A stretch of 64,000 bases of DNA from Candidatus Dojkabacteria bacterium HGW-Dojkabacteria-1 (GCA_002840365.1 PHAO01000001.1:239242-303241), one strand, 5' to 3'; positions 458 to 51,903 are shown, counted from the first letter of the stretch. Notes: generated from the letters alone by a model not told the origin. Translations and numbers: made by a program.

Positions 458-1600
458 ATGGAACCTACAGAGACAATAGGATGTGAAAAAACAGAAATGG
501 GTGAAGATTTGGCCTTTCTTAAAAGCAAGATAGAGGAAGTGCATTTTGATCCTTATAGAAATGTTGATGAGCAAACATTTTCACAATCCCTGAATAGAGT
601 AGGATTTGTGGAGAAAAGGTATAGAGAAATAGCTATACAAGAATCTATAGCTTTACTTGGAGATGCACATACTACAGTCTGTAATTTTAGATTTGGCGAA
701 TTATTTCCAGTACGATATCAAGAAATAGGTGGATATTTTTATATTATTGGGGCTCCTGACATAGGAGACCATGTTGTTGGAAGGGAAGTCCGAGGGATAA
801 ATGGTCACAGTATCGAAGATATTGTTAAGAAAGTTAAATCTCTTTCATCAAAGGAAGGACCAGAGGTACTTTTGAGAGATCTTGCTTGGTATTTACAATC
901 AAATATGATACTTAGGTATTATGGTTTCTCAGATGGCAAAGAAGTGTCTCTTGACACAGATAACGGACAAATTCCACTAAAAGTAAGTCAAAAATTAGCT
1001 AATAATCTACAAAGGCTTGACCCTCTGAAATGGATACCTACGGATGTAGATGATGATGAAACATATTTTGGAAACCCATTGTATCAATTTCGTATTTTTG
1101 GTAATACCCTGTTCTTTAAATATAACGATTGTACTAATTCAGGATATTCGAAAGAATATTTGGAAAAATTTAAAGATCGGTTATTAGAGGAGGCAAGAAT
1201 TTGTCAAACACTTGTGGTTGATTTAAGGTCAAACGATGGAGGGAGTACTGAGGTGATGTGGGACTTGTTCGAGAGGTTGCCTGATGATAGGAAAATATAT
1301 GTTGCAATCGGTAGAAGAACATTTTCTTCTGCTATGCATCATCTTCTCTATTTGAAAAATTCAAAAGGAGCAACATTAATAGGTGAGAATGCGGGTCAAA
1401 AGCCGAACAGATTCGGAGATAGTTATCACTTTACTCTACCAAATTCAAAAATTAGGATGAAATCATCCTTCAAATATTTTGAATTACTTCCAGGTCAAGA
1501 TATTGAAGTAGTGGAGCCTGATATTCGGATTCCCCTTACTATTGAAGATTATGTGAATGGTACAGACCCCCTTGAGAAATGGATAAAAGAGATGCGCTAA
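458..1600 (+). CDS. S41-family (C-terminal processing / tricorn-like) serine peptidase, no obvious PDZ domain
   Basis: VDLRSNDGGS motif (S41 DLRxNxGG) and TFSSAM segment resembling the Ser-nucleophile region; 380 aa. Confidence 0.55.
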   Translation: MEPTETIGCEKTEMGEDLAFLKSKIEEVHFDPYRNVDEQTFSQSLNRVGFVEKRYREIAIQESIALLGDAHTTVCNFRFGELFPVRYQEIGGYFYIIGAPDIGDHVVGREVRGINGHSIEDIVKKVKSLSSKEGPEVLLRDLAWYLQSNMILRYYGFSDGKEVSLDTDNGQIPLKVSQKLANNLQRLDPLKWIPTDVDDDETYFGNPLYQFRIFGNTLFFKYNDCTNSGYSKEYLEKFKDRLLEEARICQTLVVDLRSNDGGSTEVMWDLFERLPDDRKIYVAIGRRTFSSAMHHLLYLKNSKGATLIGENAGQKPNRFGDSYHFTLPNSKIRMKSSFKYFELLPGQDIEVVEPDIRIPLTIEDYVNGTDPLEKWIKEMR

Positions 1601-12900: not shown

Positions 12901-12973
12901 GGGTGTATAGCTCAATTGGTAGAGCAAACGGCTCTTAACCGTTAGGTTCAGGGTTCGAGCCCCTGTACACCCA
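12901..12973 (+). tRNA. tRNA-Lys (anticodon CTT)
   Basis: Canonical 73-nt cloverleaf: GGGTGTA acceptor, AACGG/CCGTT anticodon stem, loop CTCTTAA, T-arm CAGGG-TTCGAGC-CCCTG. Confidence 0.85.
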
Positions 12974-42149: not shown

Positions 42150-42875
42150 ATGGTTACCTTTAAAGTCGATAAAGAATATGTATTTCAAGAATTAAAATCT
42201 CTTCTTAATGACGATTCTGTTTTTAAAGATGAAGTATTTGAAGTTCTTGAAAAAGATTTTCCTGAGTTAGTAAAGGAGTATAAATCTAATCCTTCAGATG
42301 AGGTAATAAAGAGGTATTTAAATCTAGTTATTGATAATTCTGTAGAGGAATACAAAGTAGAACTAGAGAAGTATTGGAGACAGTATGAGAGTAATATATT
42401 ATCAGCCCTATTTGAGATAACTGGAGTATCAATAGATACAGATATTACATGCTACTTAAGGAACATACATTGGTATCCAAGAGATATTGATAAACAAGAA
42501 TTTGCACTTTGTGCTCAGGATTCCTTGTTTAACAGTATGTCTACTATGATCCATGAGATCACGCATTTTTACTACTTTAAAAAATGGGAGGAAGTATTTC
42601 CTGATATACCAAAAGAACAATATGAAGCACCTCACCCATATTGGCATTTAAGTGAATTAATGGCATATGTTATTGATAACGATATTAGAATAAGAGGAAT
42701 TAGCTATACTACATGGATACAATCAGAGTATGCTTATCAATGGTTTGATAATGAAGGAAAGATATCTATTCAGGGATATTTTGATAGGTTGTATAATGAA
42801 AACATTACAGATTTCAAAGAATTCCTGTTGAAGGCTAAAAAAGTTGTTGATGAGAATCCTGGACTTTTTGAGTAG
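42150..42875 (+). CDS. putative zinc metallopeptidase (HExxH motif)
   Basis: MIHEITHFYY HExxH motif in a 241-aa cytoplasmic-looking protein. Confidence 0.4.
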   Translation: MVTFKVDKEYVFQELKSLLNDDSVFKDEVFEVLEKDFPELVKEYKSNPSDEVIKRYLNLVIDNSVEEYKVELEKYWRQYESNILSALFEITGVSIDTDITCYLRNIHWYPRDIDKQEFALCAQDSLFNSMSTMIHEITHFYYFKKWEEVFPDIPKEQYEAPHPYWHLSELMAYVIDNDIRIRGISYTTWIQSEYAYQWFDNEGKISIQGYFDRLYNENITDFKEFLLKAKKVVDENPGLFE

Positions 42876-42930: not shown

Positions 42931-43446
42931 TTATACTTTTTCATTCCCAATTATCTGATATATATCATTCCGAATTTTCCCAATATTGTTTACATCTGTA
43001 CTTTGTATCCTAAGTAGAGGCATATTGGCTTCTTGAAAGATTCTTTCTACTAAATTATCTCTATCTCTCCTATCATTTCTTGAGTGGGAGATATCATCTA
43101 ATTCTATTGCTAAAAGGGGTGAAAGATATACTTTGTCACAGATTACATAGTCTATAGATTTTCTTTGTATATGGCTTAGAGCCCCTTTCCAGTCTTGTCC
43201 TATTACTTTGTTATCTAATATTGAATCTAAATGTATCTGTGGAAATATGTAATATCGGTTATCTAACAGTTGGTTTAAGGTCTTAAAGAGATCGGATTCC
43301 GCTTTTGTTAATAGGTACTTCTTTCTAGTATATTGATATATTTTTTTGGTTTTATACCTATTTTTCTTTTTTATTAATGATGAAACTACAGAGAGTAATG
43401 CAAAGATAGGGATGAGGATTAGGATGTATATTATGAAGGTATCCAT
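42931..43446 (-). CDS. membrane-anchored DUF2726 (NERD-like) domain protein
   Basis: N-terminal TM; KSIDYVICDK ... AIELDDISH ... RDRDNLVERIF resembles the DUF2726 pattern. Confidence 0.5.
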   Translation of the reverse strand: MDTFIIYILILIPIFALLSVVSSLIKKKNRYKTKKIYQYTRKKYLLTKAESDLFKTLNQLLDNRYYIFPQIHLDSILDNKVIGQDWKGALSHIQRKSIDYVICDKVYLSPLLAIELDDISHSRNDRRDRDNLVERIFQEANMPLLRIQSTDVNNIGKIRNDIYQIIGNEKV

Positions 43447-43472
43447 GTTAATAGTATATATTGTTGTTTAGA

Positions 43473-44054
43473 TTATTCAAAACTTTTAAAAATTTCTTTG
43501 TAAAAGGAAAATTTTGAAGAAACATTATTATTTAAAACCTCTAGAGTGTGCCCAAGCATCTGATAATTAACAGAGAGTATCGCATCCTCACTTAATAAAG
43601 GATAATCCTTCTTTAAGTTTGTCCAATCAAGAGATTCTGCATTTACATGGCTAAAACTATGAGTGATTTTTACTACCTTATTGTAGTATTCTTTTGAAAA
43701 TCCAACCTCTAACATTCTCTCCCCAAGGTTACTTTTTGTCCATCTCTTCCCGAATCCAAAATCATCTTTGGAGATATCTACGAGATATTCCTTTATTCTC
43801 GTTTCAAAATTTTTATTTAAAATCCATTTTAAATTTACGGTATTTTCTATTAAAGATCTTAGTAAGATGGCTGCTTCCTGAGTAAAATTCTTCTCACATA
43901 ATAAAAGAATTGCCCCAGTAATATGAAATGAATTATAAGAGAGGCTGTGGATTAAAATATTTTTAGGAGTTTTTTCATAATTTCTTCCGATTTCGTCGAA
44001 GACAGAGTCCGTTTTTTTAATAGTATCAACAATTACACTTCTATATTGTCTCAT
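43473..44054 (-). CDS. hypothetical protein immediately downstream of the Type IIG RM gene (overlapping stop/start)
   Basis: 193-aa ORF overlapping the RM gene end by 14 nt; no motifs. Confidence 0.45.
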   Translation of the reverse strand: MRQYRSVIVDTIKKTDSVFDEIGRNYEKTPKNILIHSLSYNSFHITGAILLLCEKNFTQEAAILLRSLIENTVNLKWILNKNFETRIKEYLVDISKDDFGFGKRWTKSNLGERMLEVGFSKEYYNKVVKITHSFSHVNAESLDWTNLKKDYPLLSEDAILSVNYQMLGHTLEVLNNNVSSKFSFYKEIFKSFE

Positions 44055-47000
44055 TTTTTATATTTTTATCAATTTCTTTCATAATCCTATCTGTTTTTTC
44101 TAGAATTACTATTATTTTTTGATAATGCTCTATGTCTATGTTAGTTAATTCTATTCCTCTTCTATCCTTTAACCATTTTTGTGCAGGCTGATAACCACCT
44201 ATATAGAAATTCCATGCAATTTCAGACACATTTCCAAAGTATTGGGTATCATTAATATAGACATTGCTGTTTTTGTATCTTATTTTTTCTACAACATCAG
44301 ATCCACTAATAGGATATGTAGTTATATATTTATTAATTTTTGATGATTCCATTAAATGTAATTCTCTTAGTTTTGTTCCTATCTTTACTAATTTCTTAAA
44401 AGATTCTTTGTCTTTAGGGTATGGTACTCTAGGAAAATCTATCTTTAAGAATTCTTTGTATTTCTCCCTATATTTAGGACTATGTAATACTGCATATATA
44501 TAATCAAAGATATCTTCTGGTGTAGTTTTACCAACTATTTCCTCTATTTTTTTCACTATTTCGGTATTCAAGTTTGGTGTTTTAGTACCATCGTCGGAAT
44601 AGAGGTAGAGTGGGAAGACATAGCTATTATCTAATGGGGAGCAAATAGCCTTATCAGTTATATCCTTTGTCACAAAGTAACAATGAAATGGGCTTCGGTC
44701 TCTTTTTGTGCTATTTAGAACGAAATTAGGCTTTTCGAGAATATGTTTCATAACTGCATGTCGAGGATTGAAAACAATGTTCTTATGATAATAAATAAAT
44801 CTGTTATCAAAAATCCTGTAAGAGTATGTCTTAATCAAATCTTCCCTATATGTTTTTCCTCCTTTTCTTGTGTCAGATAATTTCCAAAGAGCGTTGTCTT
44901 GGAGTGAATATTTTGATTTAATTTCTTCATCTGTTAGGTTAGGATCATAGAAGTCTTTAATCTTTTTCTCTAAGTTATTTTTGTTTGTATTTACAGCATA
45001 ATTGTCCTTTGCGGTAGTAATACCCATACTGTGAACTTTAAAAAATTCTTGCAATGAAATTCCTCTGTTATATTCATTTATATTTTCATAATTTTTTTCC
45101 TCAAAGAAGTAGTAAGGTTCTTGATACTTTATTTGTAGAAAAGGAGTAGATCCAATTTTGAGTGAATTTAACTCTCTTAATTTCTTTTCTCTAGTTCCCC
45201 AGATATCATATCTAAATATTTTTCCTAATTCATTAGATTTTTTCTTGTTTGTTTTTATACCAATAAATATTGCTACTCCAGGTTGAATATCAAAAACATT
45301 TTCATCTTTACTTCCATCTGGACTAATATCTTTTGTCTTTGTATTTCCATGCAAATCTATTATGTAGATTTTGTCAAAGGTTTTAAGTAAACTCCATCTC
45401 ATACCCCTAAAGGTGGGATTTTCTAAGTAACCATGGTTTGTTATGAAGGCAACAATTCCAGAATTATTCTTTTCAATGAAATTCTCTGCTAAGCCAAAAA
45501 ATTTTACATAATCATCATTTAGCCAATGTTTTTTTTCTTTTAATTTCTCATCTCCTCCTGGCTCAACTTTGTATTTATTAATTATACTCTTCGCATAAGG
45601 AGTTTCGTTTGAGGAAACTCCGCTATAAGGAGGATTTCCTATTACCACCATAACGGAAGTGTTTCTCTTAATCTTTTCTGCTTCCTTAGATTCTTCGGTA
45701 ATACTTTCTGCAAAACCAAAAGAAAATAGACCTTCTTGTTTAATCCCTTGTTCTAAGGCATTTGTTAAATAAATACCTAATCTTTTATTAAAATGTATAA
45801 AGCCAGTCTTTTTAAATGCAATACTTAGCTTAAGGTGAGCTATGGTATATGGAGCCATCATTAATTCAAAAGCATGAATACGAGGTAAAAGATCATGATG
45901 AACATATGAAGGCCACCGGCCTTTTTGACCAGAATCTAAAATATTTTTATAAATGAGGTTTATAACTGCACTAATAAAAGTCCCTGTTCCAGTGGCAGGA
46001 TCCAATACTTGAACAGTATGTTTTCCATCTGCAGATTTTGAAGTATCTGCTAAACCATTGTGAAGATTAAAATCTTTTTTGAGAATGGTATCTACTGAAG
46101 TCACGATGAAATTCACAACGGGGAGGGGTGTATAGTATGCCCCCATTCTTTTTCTTAAAGCAGGATCATACTCTTGAAGGAAGTCTTCGTAAAAATGTAT
46201 CACAGGATCTTTACCATCTTTTTTTTCAAAGTATTCCTCAAGTAGATTTTTTACATCAGCATGAGAGAAAATTTGGCAAAGTTCATCTACAATATATTCC
46301 AATCTTTTATCGAAATTAGGTCCTGCTATATGATCGAAAAAATGCATTAGTAAGGGATTGGATTGGGGTACTAAATCTCTTGCTTCCTGCCTTGTAAAAC
46401 GATCTTGAGATTCATCGTTATATCTTGCTGCGAATAAGCCGTAGACCAATGTCTGGGCATACATATCCGCAAAAGATTCTACAGTTAGATCGCTTACTAA
46501 AAGTTTCTTAATCATTTCATAGACTCTCGCAATTTCTGTTCCTTCTTTTAAGAATTCTTTAACATTATCTCTTATTCTTTGTGCTTTCCCCGCCATTATT
46601 TTTGAGAGGTGAGCTCCCGATTTAATTGGTTCTTTGTATGATTTTGAGAAATCAACGAGCGTCTTTTCTAAAAGGACATAGTTATCGGGGATAGAAGATA
46701 TTGTTTTTGTTTTTTTATCGACATTTCCAATTTTAATAGGTTCCTGATATAAAAGACCATTTCTGTAAAAGCGAAATTCTAGATAATCAGTTAATACAAG
46801 ATTTGCATATCCATAGTACCTAGCCATTTGCTCAGATTTTTCTATCTTGTCTAAAGATACTCCTAAATCCTTTGTTTCCATGTATAAGATAGGGATTTCC
46901 CCATTAAAAATAACAAAGTCTGGTTTATTTTTATCCTCGGTTTTAGCCTCTTGCCTTATTTTTCTTACTTCAATTCGATTAAAAATTTCCTGTAGTAGAT

Positions 47001-47094
47001 TCTGTATTGGTGTTCTATATGAATACTCTGTTCCTTTTTCACTTTTGTATATTTCAGATATGGAAGAAAGATATTTTTCGAAGGTTTGTTGCAT
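44041..47094 (-). CDS. Type IIG/IIL-like restriction-modification enzyme: N-terminal PD-(D/E)xK nuclease fused to a gamma-class N6-adenine DNA methyltransferase and a C-terminal target-recognition region
   Basis: KPDFVIF-x11-ETKD (PD ... ExK); motif I VLDPATGTGTF; motif IV VIGNPPYSG; 1017 aa; AT-rich relative to flanks. Confidence 0.8.
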   Translation of the reverse strand: MQQTFEKYLSSISEIYKSEKGTEYSYRTPIQNLLQEIFNRIEVRKIRQEAKTEDKNKPDFVIFNGEIPILYMETKDLGVSLDKIEKSEQMARYYGYANLVLTDYLEFRFYRNGLLYQEPIKIGNVDKKTKTISSIPDNYVLLEKTLVDFSKSYKEPIKSGAHLSKIMAGKAQRIRDNVKEFLKEGTEIARVYEMIKKLLVSDLTVESFADMYAQTLVYGLFAARYNDESQDRFTRQEARDLVPQSNPLLMHFFDHIAGPNFDKRLEYIVDELCQIFSHADVKNLLEEYFEKKDGKDPVIHFYEDFLQEYDPALRKRMGAYYTPLPVVNFIVTSVDTILKKDFNLHNGLADTSKSADGKHTVQVLDPATGTGTFISAVINLIYKNILDSGQKGRWPSYVHHDLLPRIHAFELMMAPYTIAHLKLSIAFKKTGFIHFNKRLGIYLTNALEQGIKQEGLFSFGFAESITEESKEAEKIKRNTSVMVVIGNPPYSGVSSNETPYAKSIINKYKVEPGGDEKLKEKKHWLNDDYVKFFGLAENFIEKNNSGIVAFITNHGYLENPTFRGMRWSLLKTFDKIYIIDLHGNTKTKDISPDGSKDENVFDIQPGVAIFIGIKTNKKKSNELGKIFRYDIWGTREKKLRELNSLKIGSTPFLQIKYQEPYYFFEEKNYENINEYNRGISLQEFFKVHSMGITTAKDNYAVNTNKNNLEKKIKDFYDPNLTDEEIKSKYSLQDNALWKLSDTRKGGKTYREDLIKTYSYRIFDNRFIYYHKNIVFNPRHAVMKHILEKPNFVLNSTKRDRSPFHCYFVTKDITDKAICSPLDNSYVFPLYLYSDDGTKTPNLNTEIVKKIEEIVGKTTPEDIFDYIYAVLHSPKYREKYKEFLKIDFPRVPYPKDKESFKKLVKIGTKLRELHLMESSKINKYITTYPISGSDVVEKIRYKNSNVYINDTQYFGNVSEIAWNFYIGGYQPAQKWLKDRRGIELTNIDIEHYQKIIVILEKTDRIMKEIDKNIKNETI

Positions 47095-47172
47095 TAACTT
47101 TTGTTAGAATTGTTAAGTTAGCTTATAGAATTTTACATTTTCTTAGTTTTTATAACAAGGGAAGAAAAGTAG

Positions 47173-48171
47173 TTATTCTTCTTTCTTTGGATATTTTTTT
47201 AGCATTTTTGATAACAACAGAAGGGTTATTTCTATTGCAATATTTCTAGATAAACGGAAATATTCCTTATTTGAAACAAAAGAATGCCCTCCCTCTTTAT
47301 GAAGAACTCCGACAAAGGAGGTTATTAGGTCATCGTCTCTATCCGATAATTCTAATTTTATTTTAAGATATCGCCTATAACGTGCAATATCTCGCAAATT
47401 TTTTCCTTCAGGGTCTTTATATTTCGGAATATTATCTCCTTCAACTGAAGAGATTCTTTTTGCTATATCTTGAACCAAATCACTGAAAAAAGATCGGAAA
47501 TCATTAATTAAACCTGCTGATATGCTACGACTTTTTGTGTTAAGATGTTCGTCTATCTCAGTTAAAAATTCGTTATATTTCTCATCTAAGTCGATATATT
47601 TTATTATTCTTTTTACCTCTTTTACATCTTTGTTAATTTCAATATTTACTGCTCTAAGTTCACCTTTTAATCCTATGATTGAGAGATCAATTAACTTTTG
47701 TAAGACTTCTTCCTTAAAATTGTTCAAATCTTGAAAAAATTCGTGAACGAGTATCTTCTTTAGAGATAATCTTAAATCAAACAATTCATCAGTTGAGAGA
47801 GAAATGAGATTCTCTTCGAGTATTAGGTCAATGAAAGAGAAAATATTGGAAGATTCATTACTTAGATTGTTATAAAGACTTGATTGAATATGTTCTAAAA
47901 CCTTGTCTTTGTGTCCAAGATTAAATAACGTCCATGATCTAATGGGCAAAGTGTTTATATCATATCTTGAAAGTAGTAGCTTAACAAAAGAGCTTCTTAG
48001 TTCTACGTTGGTTTCCTCGATAGAGTGATATAGATCTTGTAAAATTTCGGAATTGGGATAAGAAAAATTGCTATCAGAATCAAGAAAGAAGGTGAATATT
48101 CTACTGTTGATATCGGAAATTTCCTTTGTTAAAACAATTTGAACTCTTTTTTCTAACTTTTCTTCATTCAT
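47173..48171 (-). CDS. hypothetical protein heading the defence-island operon; start refined to MNEEKLEK because the longer ORF runs into tRNA-Asp
   Basis: 332-aa ORF on the same strand 78 nt upstream of the RM gene. Confidence 0.45.
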   Translation of the reverse strand: MNEEKLEKRVQIVLTKEISDINSRIFTFFLDSDSNFSYPNSEILQDLYHSIEETNVELRSSFVKLLLSRYDINTLPIRSWTLFNLGHKDKVLEHIQSSLYNNLSNESSNIFSFIDLILEENLISLSTDELFDLRLSLKKILVHEFFQDLNNFKEEVLQKLIDLSIIGLKGELRAVNIEINKDVKEVKRIIKYIDLDEKYNEFLTEIDEHLNTKSRSISAGLINDFRSFFSDLVQDIAKRISSVEGDNIPKYKDPEGKNLRDIARYRRYLKIKLELSDRDDDLITSFVGVLHKEGGHSFVSNKEYFRLSRNIAIEITLLLLSKMLKKYPKKEE

Positions 48172-48183
48172 TATTCTTGAAAA

Positions 48184-48260
48184 TGGCGGGGTGAACGGGA
48201 CTCGAACCCGCAACCTTTGCAGTGACAGTGCAATGCTCTAACCAGTTGAGCTACCACCCC
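48184..48260 (-). tRNA. tRNA-Asp (anticodon GTC)
   Basis: Reverse complement reads GGGGTGGTAGCTCAACTGGTTAGAGC ... TTGCA-CTGTCAC-TGCAA ... GGGTTCGAGTCCCG ... CCGCCA. Confidence 0.85.
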
Positions 48261-49612: not shown

Positions 49613-50704
49613 ATGAAAAGATTTAGATTAACTAACAATAACTGGGACGAAGCAATTAAAGAAGCAGTAAAGGTACTAAATGAAGGTGGGCTTGTAGTAT
49701 ATCCTACAGAAACCTGTTATGGTATTGCTGTAGATGCTACTAATGAGAGAGCATTAAGTAAGCTTCTCTCATACAAAACATTCAGAGGTTCCAAACCTAT
49801 CTCAGTAGCTGTAGCTAATAGAGAGATGGCAGAAAGGTATGTAGAAATAAATGAAATGGCAGAAAATATATACAAGAACTACTTACCAGGACCAATAACT
49901 GTGGTATCAATGAGTAAAGGAGTTCTTAAACCACCAGTTGTTTCTAAGCAAGATTCTACCGGTATTAGAATACCAGATTACAAATTTACACTTAAGTTGA
50001 TTGAATCTTTTGGAAGACCAATTACTGCGACCTCTGCAAATGTATCTTACAAACCACATCCATACAGTATTGATCAATTGATAAAGGATTTACCTAAGAA
50101 AAGTGAATCCCTTATTGATCTATTCTTAGATGATGGAGAACTACCAAAAAATGTACCATCTACAATATTAGATACCACTATGAATACTCTTACTGTACTA
50201 AGGGAAGGAAAGCTAAAATTTGAAGATGCAATTTTACAAAGTACTCTTTTGGAAGAGAAAATAACTAAGAAACCTGAACATACAAGTGATATGGGAGAGT
50301 CCTTTACTAAGGAATACCTAAAGGATTTAGAAGGTAGTGTTGTAATTGCATTAAGTGGAGAGCTAGGTGCTGGTAAAACTCAATTCACAAAAGGTATTGG
50401 AGTAGGACTTGGGGTAGAAGAGCTAGTTAATTCACCTACATATACAATCATAAATGAGTATGAATATGGTAGTAAGGTATTAGCACATATGGACACATGG
50501 AGACTCATGGATGAGGATGATTTAAACAGGTCTGGACTAATTGAGCATTTGGAGAAGGGTAACATTGTAGTAATAGAGTGGGCAGACAAATTCTACCAAG
50601 AGCTGGAAGGGATATGTCGCCAAAAAAACATCCCTATGTACAAAGTAACATTTAAATATATTTCACTTAAAGAAAGAGAGATAAAGATATATGGTACTAA
50701 CTAA
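49613..50704 (+). CDS. fusion of TsaC/Sua5 (YrdC domain, threonylcarbamoyl-AMP synthase) with the TsaE (YjeE) P-loop ATPase
   Basis: N-terminal VVYPTETCYGIAVDATNERA (YrdC); C-terminal ALSGELGAGKTQFTKGI (TsaE Walker A). Confidence 0.75.
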   Translation: MKRFRLTNNNWDEAIKEAVKVLNEGGLVVYPTETCYGIAVDATNERALSKLLSYKTFRGSKPISVAVANREMAERYVEINEMAENIYKNYLPGPITVVSMSKGVLKPPVVSKQDSTGIRIPDYKFTLKLIESFGRPITATSANVSYKPHPYSIDQLIKDLPKKSESLIDLFLDDGELPKNVPSTILDTTMNTLTVLREGKLKFEDAILQSTLLEEKITKKPEHTSDMGESFTKEYLKDLEGSVVIALSGELGAGKTQFTKGIGVGLGVEELVNSPTYTIINEYEYGSKVLAHMDTWRLMDEDDLNRSGLIEHLEKGNIVVIEWADKFYQELEGICRQKNIPMYKVTFKYISLKEREIKIYGTN

Positions 50705-51823: not shown

Positions 51824-51896
51824 GCGCTGGTGGGGAAGTTGGTATCCCGTTGGATTTTAAATCCAAAGCTCGAAGGTTCAAGTCCTTCCCAGCGCG
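51824..51896 (+). tRNA. canonical 73-nt tRNA cloverleaf with anticodon TTA (reads UAA/UAG); suppressor-type tRNA with Gln-like features (discriminator G73, UUUUAAA loop)
   Basis: Acceptor GCGCTGG/CCAGCGC, D-arm GGGA-AGTTGGTA-TCCC, anticodon stem TTGGA/TCCAA with loop TTTTAAA, variable AGCTC, T-arm GAAGG-TTCAAGT-CCTTC; all arm lengths canonical. Confidence 0.55.
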
Positions 51897-51903
51897 CCTT
51901 AAG

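Follow-up and report, generated by a model that had tools for sequence, protein, structure and literature searches.

Four genes lie in a row on one strand behind a tRNA gene, and the second of them encodes a restriction-modification (RM) enzyme: do they act together as one defence system, or are they separate modules that share a place in the genome? The question is raised by a locus in Candidatus Dojkabacteria bacterium HGW-Dojkabacteria-1, a bacterium of the Candidate Phyla Radiation (CPR) with ~33% GC, where the genes carry the locus tags CVU76_01465-01475. The locus was analysed within a stretch of 64,000 nucleotides (GCA_002840365.1 PHAO01000001.1:239242-303241), referred to below as the window, and compared with loci of other genomes and metagenomes, which bear L numbers. 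A sequence-only reading had described here, on the minus strand, a tRNA-Asp gene followed by a gene for a 332-aa protein, a Type IIG RM gene, an overlapping gene for a 193-aa protein and a gene for a transmembrane-anchored DUF2726 protein, and the array is present just as it was described. We lean slightly towards reading it as a patchwork of independently distributed, single-gene modules of defence type, and not as a four-component system.

Gene content of the locus among its relatives

The four genes do not travel as a set. A scan of GTDB with the RM protein gave eight loci (L016-L023; 43-66% identity) from Dojkabacteria, Saccharibacteria, other Patescibacteria, Ignavibacteria and Leptospiraceae, and neither tblastn nor profile searches found relatives of the 332-, 193- or 171-aa proteins within 6 kb of any of them. 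When a further locus, L012, is counted in, nine non-syntenic relatives of the RM gene are without the three accessory families nearby, save for a rearranged DUF5677 gene (the family of the 193-aa protein, see below) in L012; in L017 the RM gene stands alone among housekeeping genes. Close Dojkabacteria relatives, found through the 332-aa protein, keep part of the arrangement. L025 (89% identity) has the order trx, GGDEF, tRNA-Asp, 332-aa gene and RM gene, followed by an unrelated 430-aa gene; L024 (85%) has a frameshifted 332-aa gene, the RM gene and the DUF2726 gene; L026 and L046 (84-91%) have tRNA-Asp, the 332-aa gene and the RM gene; and L003-5 (52%) have trx, GT2, tRNA-Asp and a 333-aa homologue with the RM gene absent. 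The 332-aa homologue of L024 is annotated as 277 aa because of one extra A in a poly-A run. DUF5677 is absent from L024, L025 and L016-L023, and DUF2726 from all compared loci but L024, the only syntenic relative with a homologue of the 171-aa protein. Thus the window, L024, L025 and L003 differ in the presence or absence of the RM gene and of all that follows it, while the 332-aa gene is constant. No homology was found among the variable downstream genes (430 aa in L025, 244 and 431 aa in L003, 199 aa in L012). The full set occurs in no other genome compared, and the idea of a conserved four-gene system falls with it, since variability of the flanking genes had been named beforehand as the observation that would speak against it.

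The RM gene (44041-47094, minus strand; 1017 aa) begins 78 nt downstream of the stop codon of the 332-aa gene. Its assignment to Type IIG holds: the product matches the PADLOC model REase_MTase_IIG at 1.3e-274 and the Pfam families Type_ISP_C (2e-83, residues 683-1007), N6_Mtase and Eco57I. One chain contains the PD-(D/E)xK motif P58-D59...E73-x-K75, DPATGTG at 365 and NPPY at 487, in the order N-terminal PD-(D/E)xK nuclease, gamma-class N6-adenine methyltransferase and C-terminal Type_ISP_C target-recognition domain (TRD). Nuclease, methyltransferase and TRD in a single polypeptide are the mark of Type IIG/IIL enzymes, and no ATPase or helicase domain was detected by Pfam in this open reading frame (ORF), which separates it from Type ISP and from Types I and III. 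The best sequence match in the PDB is DrdV (7lo5, 5.2e-52), a Type IIL/IIG enzyme of the MmeI family with the same domain order in a single polypeptide of ~1000 aa; the alignment covers residues 300-914 only, and the nuclease part outside it is more divergent. The Type ISP enzymes LlaBIII and LlaGI (4xqk, 5ffj; 1e-41 to 1e-46) share the methylase and the Type_ISP_C recognition module, but they align only with the methyltransferase-TRD part, the C-terminal two-thirds of the chain, and the present ORF is ~400-560 aa shorter and has no helicase-like ATPase motor. Type IIG enzymes work as single chains, and therefore no partner should be required: from its domains, the enzyme is predicted to be self-sufficient, methylating host sites for protection and cutting unmodified DNA.

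The identity profile of the enzyme is mosaic. Over residues 151-450 it shares 84-98% identity with the non-syntenic Dojkabacteria homologue in L017, compared with 54-80% for the syntenic L024 and L025, whereas the TRD core (approximately residues 600-800) shows 6-46% identity across L017, L024 and L025, and 26-46% against the syntenic orthologues. The different patterns of the methylase region and the TRD core suggest recombination and switching of specificity.

The 193-aa gene (43473-44054, minus strand) begins inside the RM gene, its ATG opening the last 14 nt of that gene (stop codon included), and this overlap had been taken as a sign of translational coupling. The junction DNA points to another origin. 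In blastn comparison, positions 44060 and 43465 of the window correspond to positions 12928 and 12943 of L024, which are 14 nt apart there, so that a segment of ~590 bp with the DUF5677 gene (43466-44059, minus strand) is missing at the syntenic RM-DUF2726 junction of L024. The RM protein ends in ...EIDKNIKNETI* in the window and in ...EIDKII--DL* or similar in L024, L025, L012 and L017, and in the window the RM reading frame takes its final ~7 codons and its TAG stop from the ~590-bp segment. Because the final codons and the stop derive from this segment, the 14-nt overlap is, as judged from junction DNA and protein C-termini together, a scar left when an insertion or deletion altered the 3′ end of the RM gene and replaced the native C-terminus. 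The 193-aa gene may still be translationally coupled to the RM gene. The DUF5677 gene, a putative AbiB-like module, was gained here independently, or was lost from the relatives, as a cassette of ~590 bp.

These comparisons bear directly on the proposal that the four genes are one co-functional RM operon with obligatory specificity, control or abortive-infection subunits and with a translationally coupled 193-aa gene. All four are on the same strand at spacings of 78, -14 and 26 nt, as such an operon would require, and a scan of the array for promoters and terminators gave counts not above those of shuffled sequence, leaving no convincing terminator between the genes. Moreover, in L012-L015 a DUF5677 gene and an RM gene of 57% identity lie no more than 700 bp apart. 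In L012, however, DUF5677 is upstream of the RM gene with an antisense gene in between, and close relatives of the 193-aa protein occur where there is no RM gene (L010 and L011). The absence of the four-gene set elsewhere, the lack of DUF5677 and DUF2726 in most relatives, the origin of the overlap in an indel, by which the native C-terminus of the RM protein was replaced, and the single-chain action of Type IIG enzymes, with DrdV as the best sequence match in the PDB, make an obligatory operon very improbable.

The DUF5677 and DUF2726 proteins

The sequence-only reading had held that none of the accessory proteins has a recognisable motif. This is true of the 332-aa protein, which has no match in Pfam, NCBIfam or PADLOC, but not of the other two. 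The 193-aa protein belongs to Pfam DUF5677 (PF18928; 45.7 bits against a cut-off of 27.1, E 1e-11), although the match spans only profile positions 3-61 of 166; the same family is found in all 17 of its relatives. Weak matches to two PADLOC models accompany it, namely AbiB (E 4.7e-4 over ~60 residues; also in 9/17 relatives) and PDC-S52 (also in 10/17). AbiB superimposes on the 4NQF HEPN domain and is linked to phage mRNA decay with a capsid protein as trigger (2026 review, PMC13064643). By this weak AbiB similarity the 193-aa protein is most likely an independent, phage-triggered RNase of HEPN type. Its relatives were not found among IMG/VR viral contigs or PLSDB plasmids, and DUF5677 has been reported in a preprint to be enriched beside serine recombinases (PMC12632615).

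Some further observations concern the surroundings of this family. In Dojkabacteria without the RM gene (L010, L011 and a contig of P0048), DUF5677 shares a variable patch with DUF6602, DUF3800, a GNAT acetyltransferase and an ABC ATPase, and in L011 it follows directly after tRNA-Ser. The antisense gene that separates DUF5677 from the Type IIG gene in L012 (1420-2019, minus strand) encodes 199 aa with no Pfam match; it contains an R-x4-H string, RDHIRH, and may be another gene of HEPN type.

The last gene of the array (42931-43446, minus strand), 26 nt beyond the 193-aa ORF, encodes 171 aa. Residues 43-163 match Pfam DUF2726 (PF10881) over essentially its full length (profile positions 2-124 of 126) at 3.9e-29, and weak matches to MTES_1575 and DUF559 are also seen. 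DUF2726 is classed with the restriction endonuclease (REase) or PD-(D/E)xK fold, of Vsr/DUF559-like kind, and is regarded as a mobile REase-fold domain that is often fused to defence modules (PMC3424549, PMC3710099). The present protein differs from DUF2726 and Vsr/DUF559-type nucleases in being small and having its own N-terminal transmembrane anchor, a hydrophobic helix with a Kyte-Doolittle 19-residue maximum of 2.8 at residue 3. PADLOC gave only a weak SduA match, and it holds no defence system based on DUF2726. The hexamer TATACT stands 8 nt upstream of the ATG, and because of this position the gene may have a leaderless promoter of its own. Taken together, family membership and distribution point to a facultative component of the locus, which would be a membrane-tethered protein of nuclease fold.

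The 332-aa family and its genomic company

The first gene of the array (47173-48171, minus strand) begins with an ATG 12 nt past the 3′ end of the tRNA. A mechanical ORF call gives 346 aa from a TTG and runs into the tRNA, while the homologues begin at the ATG, hence the length of 332 aa. Searches with this protein and 41 family members gave no real match in Pfam, NCBIfam or PADLOC; matches to MUN and FliD_C were scattered chance hits and were rejected. The Pfam HEPN models found none of the 41 members at E<=1, a profile search of the PDB gave nothing below E 0.4, and no helix-turn-helix (HTH) or other DNA-binding domain was found by Pfam. A kinship with the DUF5677 family was also considered and discarded (hhalign probability 0.7%). 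The family is nevertheless large, with 43 close homologues and 510 clusters (50% identity, E<=1e-3, among 1.84 billion representatives). Its members are nearly all single-domain proteins of 320-400 aa, they are all named hypothetical or left unnamed in the source databases, and they occur patchily in lineages far apart, one of the contigs being apparently archaeal. No relatives were found in IMG/VR viral contigs, INPHARED phages or PLSDB plasmids.

Of the two halves of the protein, the helical N-terminal one varies among members, while the C-terminal one (~residues 147-326) is conserved. An AlphaFold2 model (pLDDT 86) presents the latter as a HEPN-like bundle, an assignment held with moderate confidence because Foldseek with the whole two-domain model gave no significant match in the PDB. 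Near-invariant residues among ~170 sequences are E178, D182 (159/169), R226 (164/171), H296 (167/170), R306 (153/170), N310 (168/170) and E314 (165/169). In the model, H296 follows just after helix 277-292, in the loop between helices 3 and 4; in HEPN RNases the catalytic His is located in this loop, and the position of H296 agrees with it (PMC3710099). The Arg of the Rx4-6H motif is missing, as the position five residues before H296 is occupied by H, N or S (100, 46 and 18 sequences) and never by Arg, and some HEPN families are known in which the His is retained without the Arg (PMC3710099). In the putative active site, H296 would take the place of the HEPN catalytic His, with the conserved R226, R306, N310 and E314 in place of the motif Arg.

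The company that the family keeps was examined in ~32 lineages, represented by 49 metagenome loci plus contigs from exact look-up. Among 100 proteins encoded within two genes of a family member, Pfam matches were EcoRI_methylase (4), GmrSD_N (4), ResIII (3), SWI2_SNF2 (3), BrnT (3), BrnA (3), EcoEI_R_C (2), MNT (2), HNH (2) and T5orf172 (2), and PADLOC recognised components of Type I and Type II RM systems. By comparison, 117 genes at least three positions away in the same loci included no RM or toxin-antitoxin (TA) family with two or more members. An RM, TA or Cas gene is directly beside the family gene in ~11 of the ~32 lineages. In seven lineages the neighbour is an RM or restriction-nuclease gene, located downstream and on the same strand in six of the seven, and the family members at RM-linked loci share only 29-66% identity. 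The partners are of various kinds. In L042 an Eco57I-type IIG gene (1062 aa) has its start inside the family gene; in L043 it lies between GmrSD and HsdM; in L044, L051, L057 and L058 it is followed by an EcoRI-like methylase and a GmrSD_N-HNH nuclease; HsdR is beside it in L053 and L065, and Mrr in L032. Other neighbours are Cas1, immediately upstream in L077, ParE and HNH in L075, and HEPN/MNT in L009 and L029. The association with RM genes is thus local and recurrent, and not obligatory.

Sixteen HEPN clades are known to adjoin RM systems, with PrrC at EcoprrI as the paradigm (Anantharaman et al. 2013, PMC3710099). From these RM-linked HEPN proteins the 332-aa protein differs in having no NTPase domain, no Rx4-6H motif and no Pfam HEPN match, and in often standing alone. 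PrrC and RloC are NTPase- or ABC-HEPN fusions inside a Type Ic hsd locus, whereas the partner is Type IIG here and varied elsewhere, so that the comparison is an analogy only. In the patchwork that we slightly favour, the 332-aa protein would be an RNA-targeting, second-line effector of abortive-infection type, tending to accompany RM systems whatever their type, in the general way proposed for other RM-linked HEPN proteins. The earlier suggestion that the genes next to the RM enzyme are defence components can be kept in this looser sense, given the HEPN-like, AbiB-like and DUF2726 folds or families and the presence of the 332-aa family beside RM and TA genes elsewhere; as dedicated RM subunits they do not stand.

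Several points weigh against this reading. The activities of all proteins of the array are predictions, and H296 was placed at the active-site position from secondary structure alone. About half of the lineages of the 332-aa family have housekeeping or uncharacterised neighbours (for example, DnaK in L076, KARI in L034 and SelR in L068), and because about half of the loci have no defence neighbour, the RM link may be plain co-location in defence islands. The RM-linked events are perhaps not fully independent, since several of the loci come from similar metagenomes. As for the DUF5677 family, a gene tested in Enterococcus faecalis gave no protection against phages (preprint, PMC12632615).

The same evidence allows the 332-aa gene to be taken as a lineage-conserved gene unrelated to defence that shares the tRNA-Asp transcript, with a mobile RM gene and further cargo having come to lie downstream by chance, and with coincidence as the source of RM neighbours elsewhere. 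The pairing of tRNA-Asp with the 332-aa gene is kept at 52-100% identity whether the RM gene is present or absent, housekeeping genes adjoin the family in L006, L030, L034, L068 and L076, and viral contigs, phages and plasmids are without relatives, all of which fit such a gene. Chance, however, does not easily account for RM, TA or Cas neighbours in about a third of the lineages, for RM genes that are downstream and co-directional in nearly every case, or for the lack of enrichment among more distant genes, and a patchy spread over distant lineages is typical of defence genes and not of core genes. We regard a role outside defence as rather unlikely.

Alternatively, the 332-aa protein might regulate the downstream RM gene, as an analogue of C proteins or as a non-catalytic, RNA-binding HEPN protein. 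Its gene leads the RM gene on the same strand in six of the seven RM-linked lineages and overlaps the RM start in L042, and for motif-less HEPN domains, like this one without the Rx4-6H Arg, RNA binding without catalysis has been proposed (PMC3710099). A controller of the C-protein type is a small HTH protein encoded upstream of the restriction gene, while the upstream gene in the present locus encodes an all-helical protein of 332 aa with no HTH match or other DNA-binding domain, and the partner RM systems of the family are unrelated in type and promoter. Furthermore, nine relatives of the RM enzyme manage without the 332-aa gene, members of the family often have no RM gene nearby, and the strong conservation of its H, R, N and E residues suggests a site for catalysis or for a ligand. 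A regulatory role appears decidedly improbable.

A bolder form of the effector reading can be put forward as a speculation that is itself unlikely: the 332-aa family would be a hitherto unrecognised class of RM-coupled effectors, HEPN-derived RNases that have remodelled their active site (H296, R226/R306, N310 and E314), sense or dock onto RM systems of Types I, II, IIG and IV alike from their operon-leading position, and bring about abortive infection when restriction fails, as a general, NTPase-free counterpart of PrrC. In Dojkabacteria, a co-transcript with tRNA-Asp might tie the expression of the 332-aa protein to tRNA processing.

The tRNA-Asp junction and the rest of the window

The tRNA-Asp gene (anticodon GUC; 48184-48260, minus strand) was identified by ARAGORN and scores 70.3 bits with the Rfam tRNA model. 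Its pairing with the 332-aa gene, with a spacer of 12-23 nt, is also found in L003, L025 and L026, and among the family loci examined a tRNA directly upstream of the family gene is seen in Dojkabacteria only. The two genes are probably co-transcribed; a sequence resembling an extended -10 element, TGATATACT, is read ~13 nt upstream of tRNA-Asp and may serve as their promoter.

An array that begins immediately 3′ of a tRNA, and whose content past the first gene varies among relatives, recalls a classical genomic island integrated site-specifically at the tRNA 3′ end; the sequence-only reading had spoken of a tRNA-Asp-linked defence island. The site has indeed been used by a mobile element in one lineage. 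In L024 (1-9000; 8816-9834) other sequence has taken the place of tRNA-Asp except for its final 7 nt (CCCGCCA), and ~3 kb upstream a large serine recombinase is encoded, near radical-SAM, DUF2779 and GIY-YIG genes; this remnant and the nearby recombinase indicate that the 3′ end of tRNA-Asp probably served as integration site for an element, on the opposite side of the tRNA. In the window itself the corresponding traces are lacking: no integrase or recombinase was found near the array in a Pfam scan of the window proteins, no second copy of the 3′-terminal 25-mer of the tRNA was found with up to three mismatches, no direct or inverted repeats flank the array borders, and its GC content (0.29-0.34, against ~0.33 for the window) shows no compositional break. 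Besides, the first gene past the tRNA, the 332-aa gene, is conserved even in relatives without the RM gene. An island of the classical type is accordingly the remotest of the explanations discussed here.

Absence of Shine-Dalgarno sequences was tried as a sign of foreign origin and rejected, as almost no gene of the window has one. Many genes have TATAAT 5-10 nt before the start (for example, upstream of 458, 3690, 14343, 16002, 17893, 42150 and 49613), and the near absence of Shine-Dalgarno sequences together with these closely placed hexamers suggests that leaderless mRNAs are widespread in the host genome.

The array is bordered by a divergent GGDEF gene on one side and by a convergent gene for a 241-aa protein on the other (42150-42875, plus strand). 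The latter protein, found in the same organism only, has no match in Pfam, PADLOC or NCBIfam; it carries an HExxH motif (MIHEITHFY) and may be an unannotated metallopeptidase-like protein. Farther along, Sua5/TsaC and TsaE domains are fused in a 363-aa ORF (49613-50704, plus strand) followed by tsaD in an overlapping frame, an order also present in L003. Between tsaD and enolase lies a well-formed tRNA gene (51824-51898, plus strand; 68.8 bits in Rfam) whose UUA anticodon would pair with the stop codon UAA, and L026, a close relative, has the same tRNA (1272-1346, minus strand; ~95% identical) with the anticodon CUA, which would read UAG. Yet TAA and TAG are the usual stops here: of 55 ORFs of the window, 34 end in TAA, 19 in TAG and only 2 in TGA. 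These tRNAs could be nonsense suppressors or have another role.

The locus holds a general lesson: an apparent operon that proves to be a mosaic, with an overlap that is the scar of an insertion, cautions against equating co-orientation with co-function. With their tiny genomes and scarcity of CRISPR systems, CPR bacteria probably depend on RM enzymes and small single-gene modules for most of their defence against phages. In the 332-aa family the locus also offers a positive lead, a family of ~510 clusters that has no database annotation, is predicted to be HEPN-like without the canonical motif, and recurs before RM systems of varied types. If its effector role is false, the locus would be an ordinary defence patch. 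If the family is truly an RM-associated effector, it would add a new family to the multi-pronged defence formed by HEPN proteins and RM systems, and would provide a new marker for defence-finding tools.

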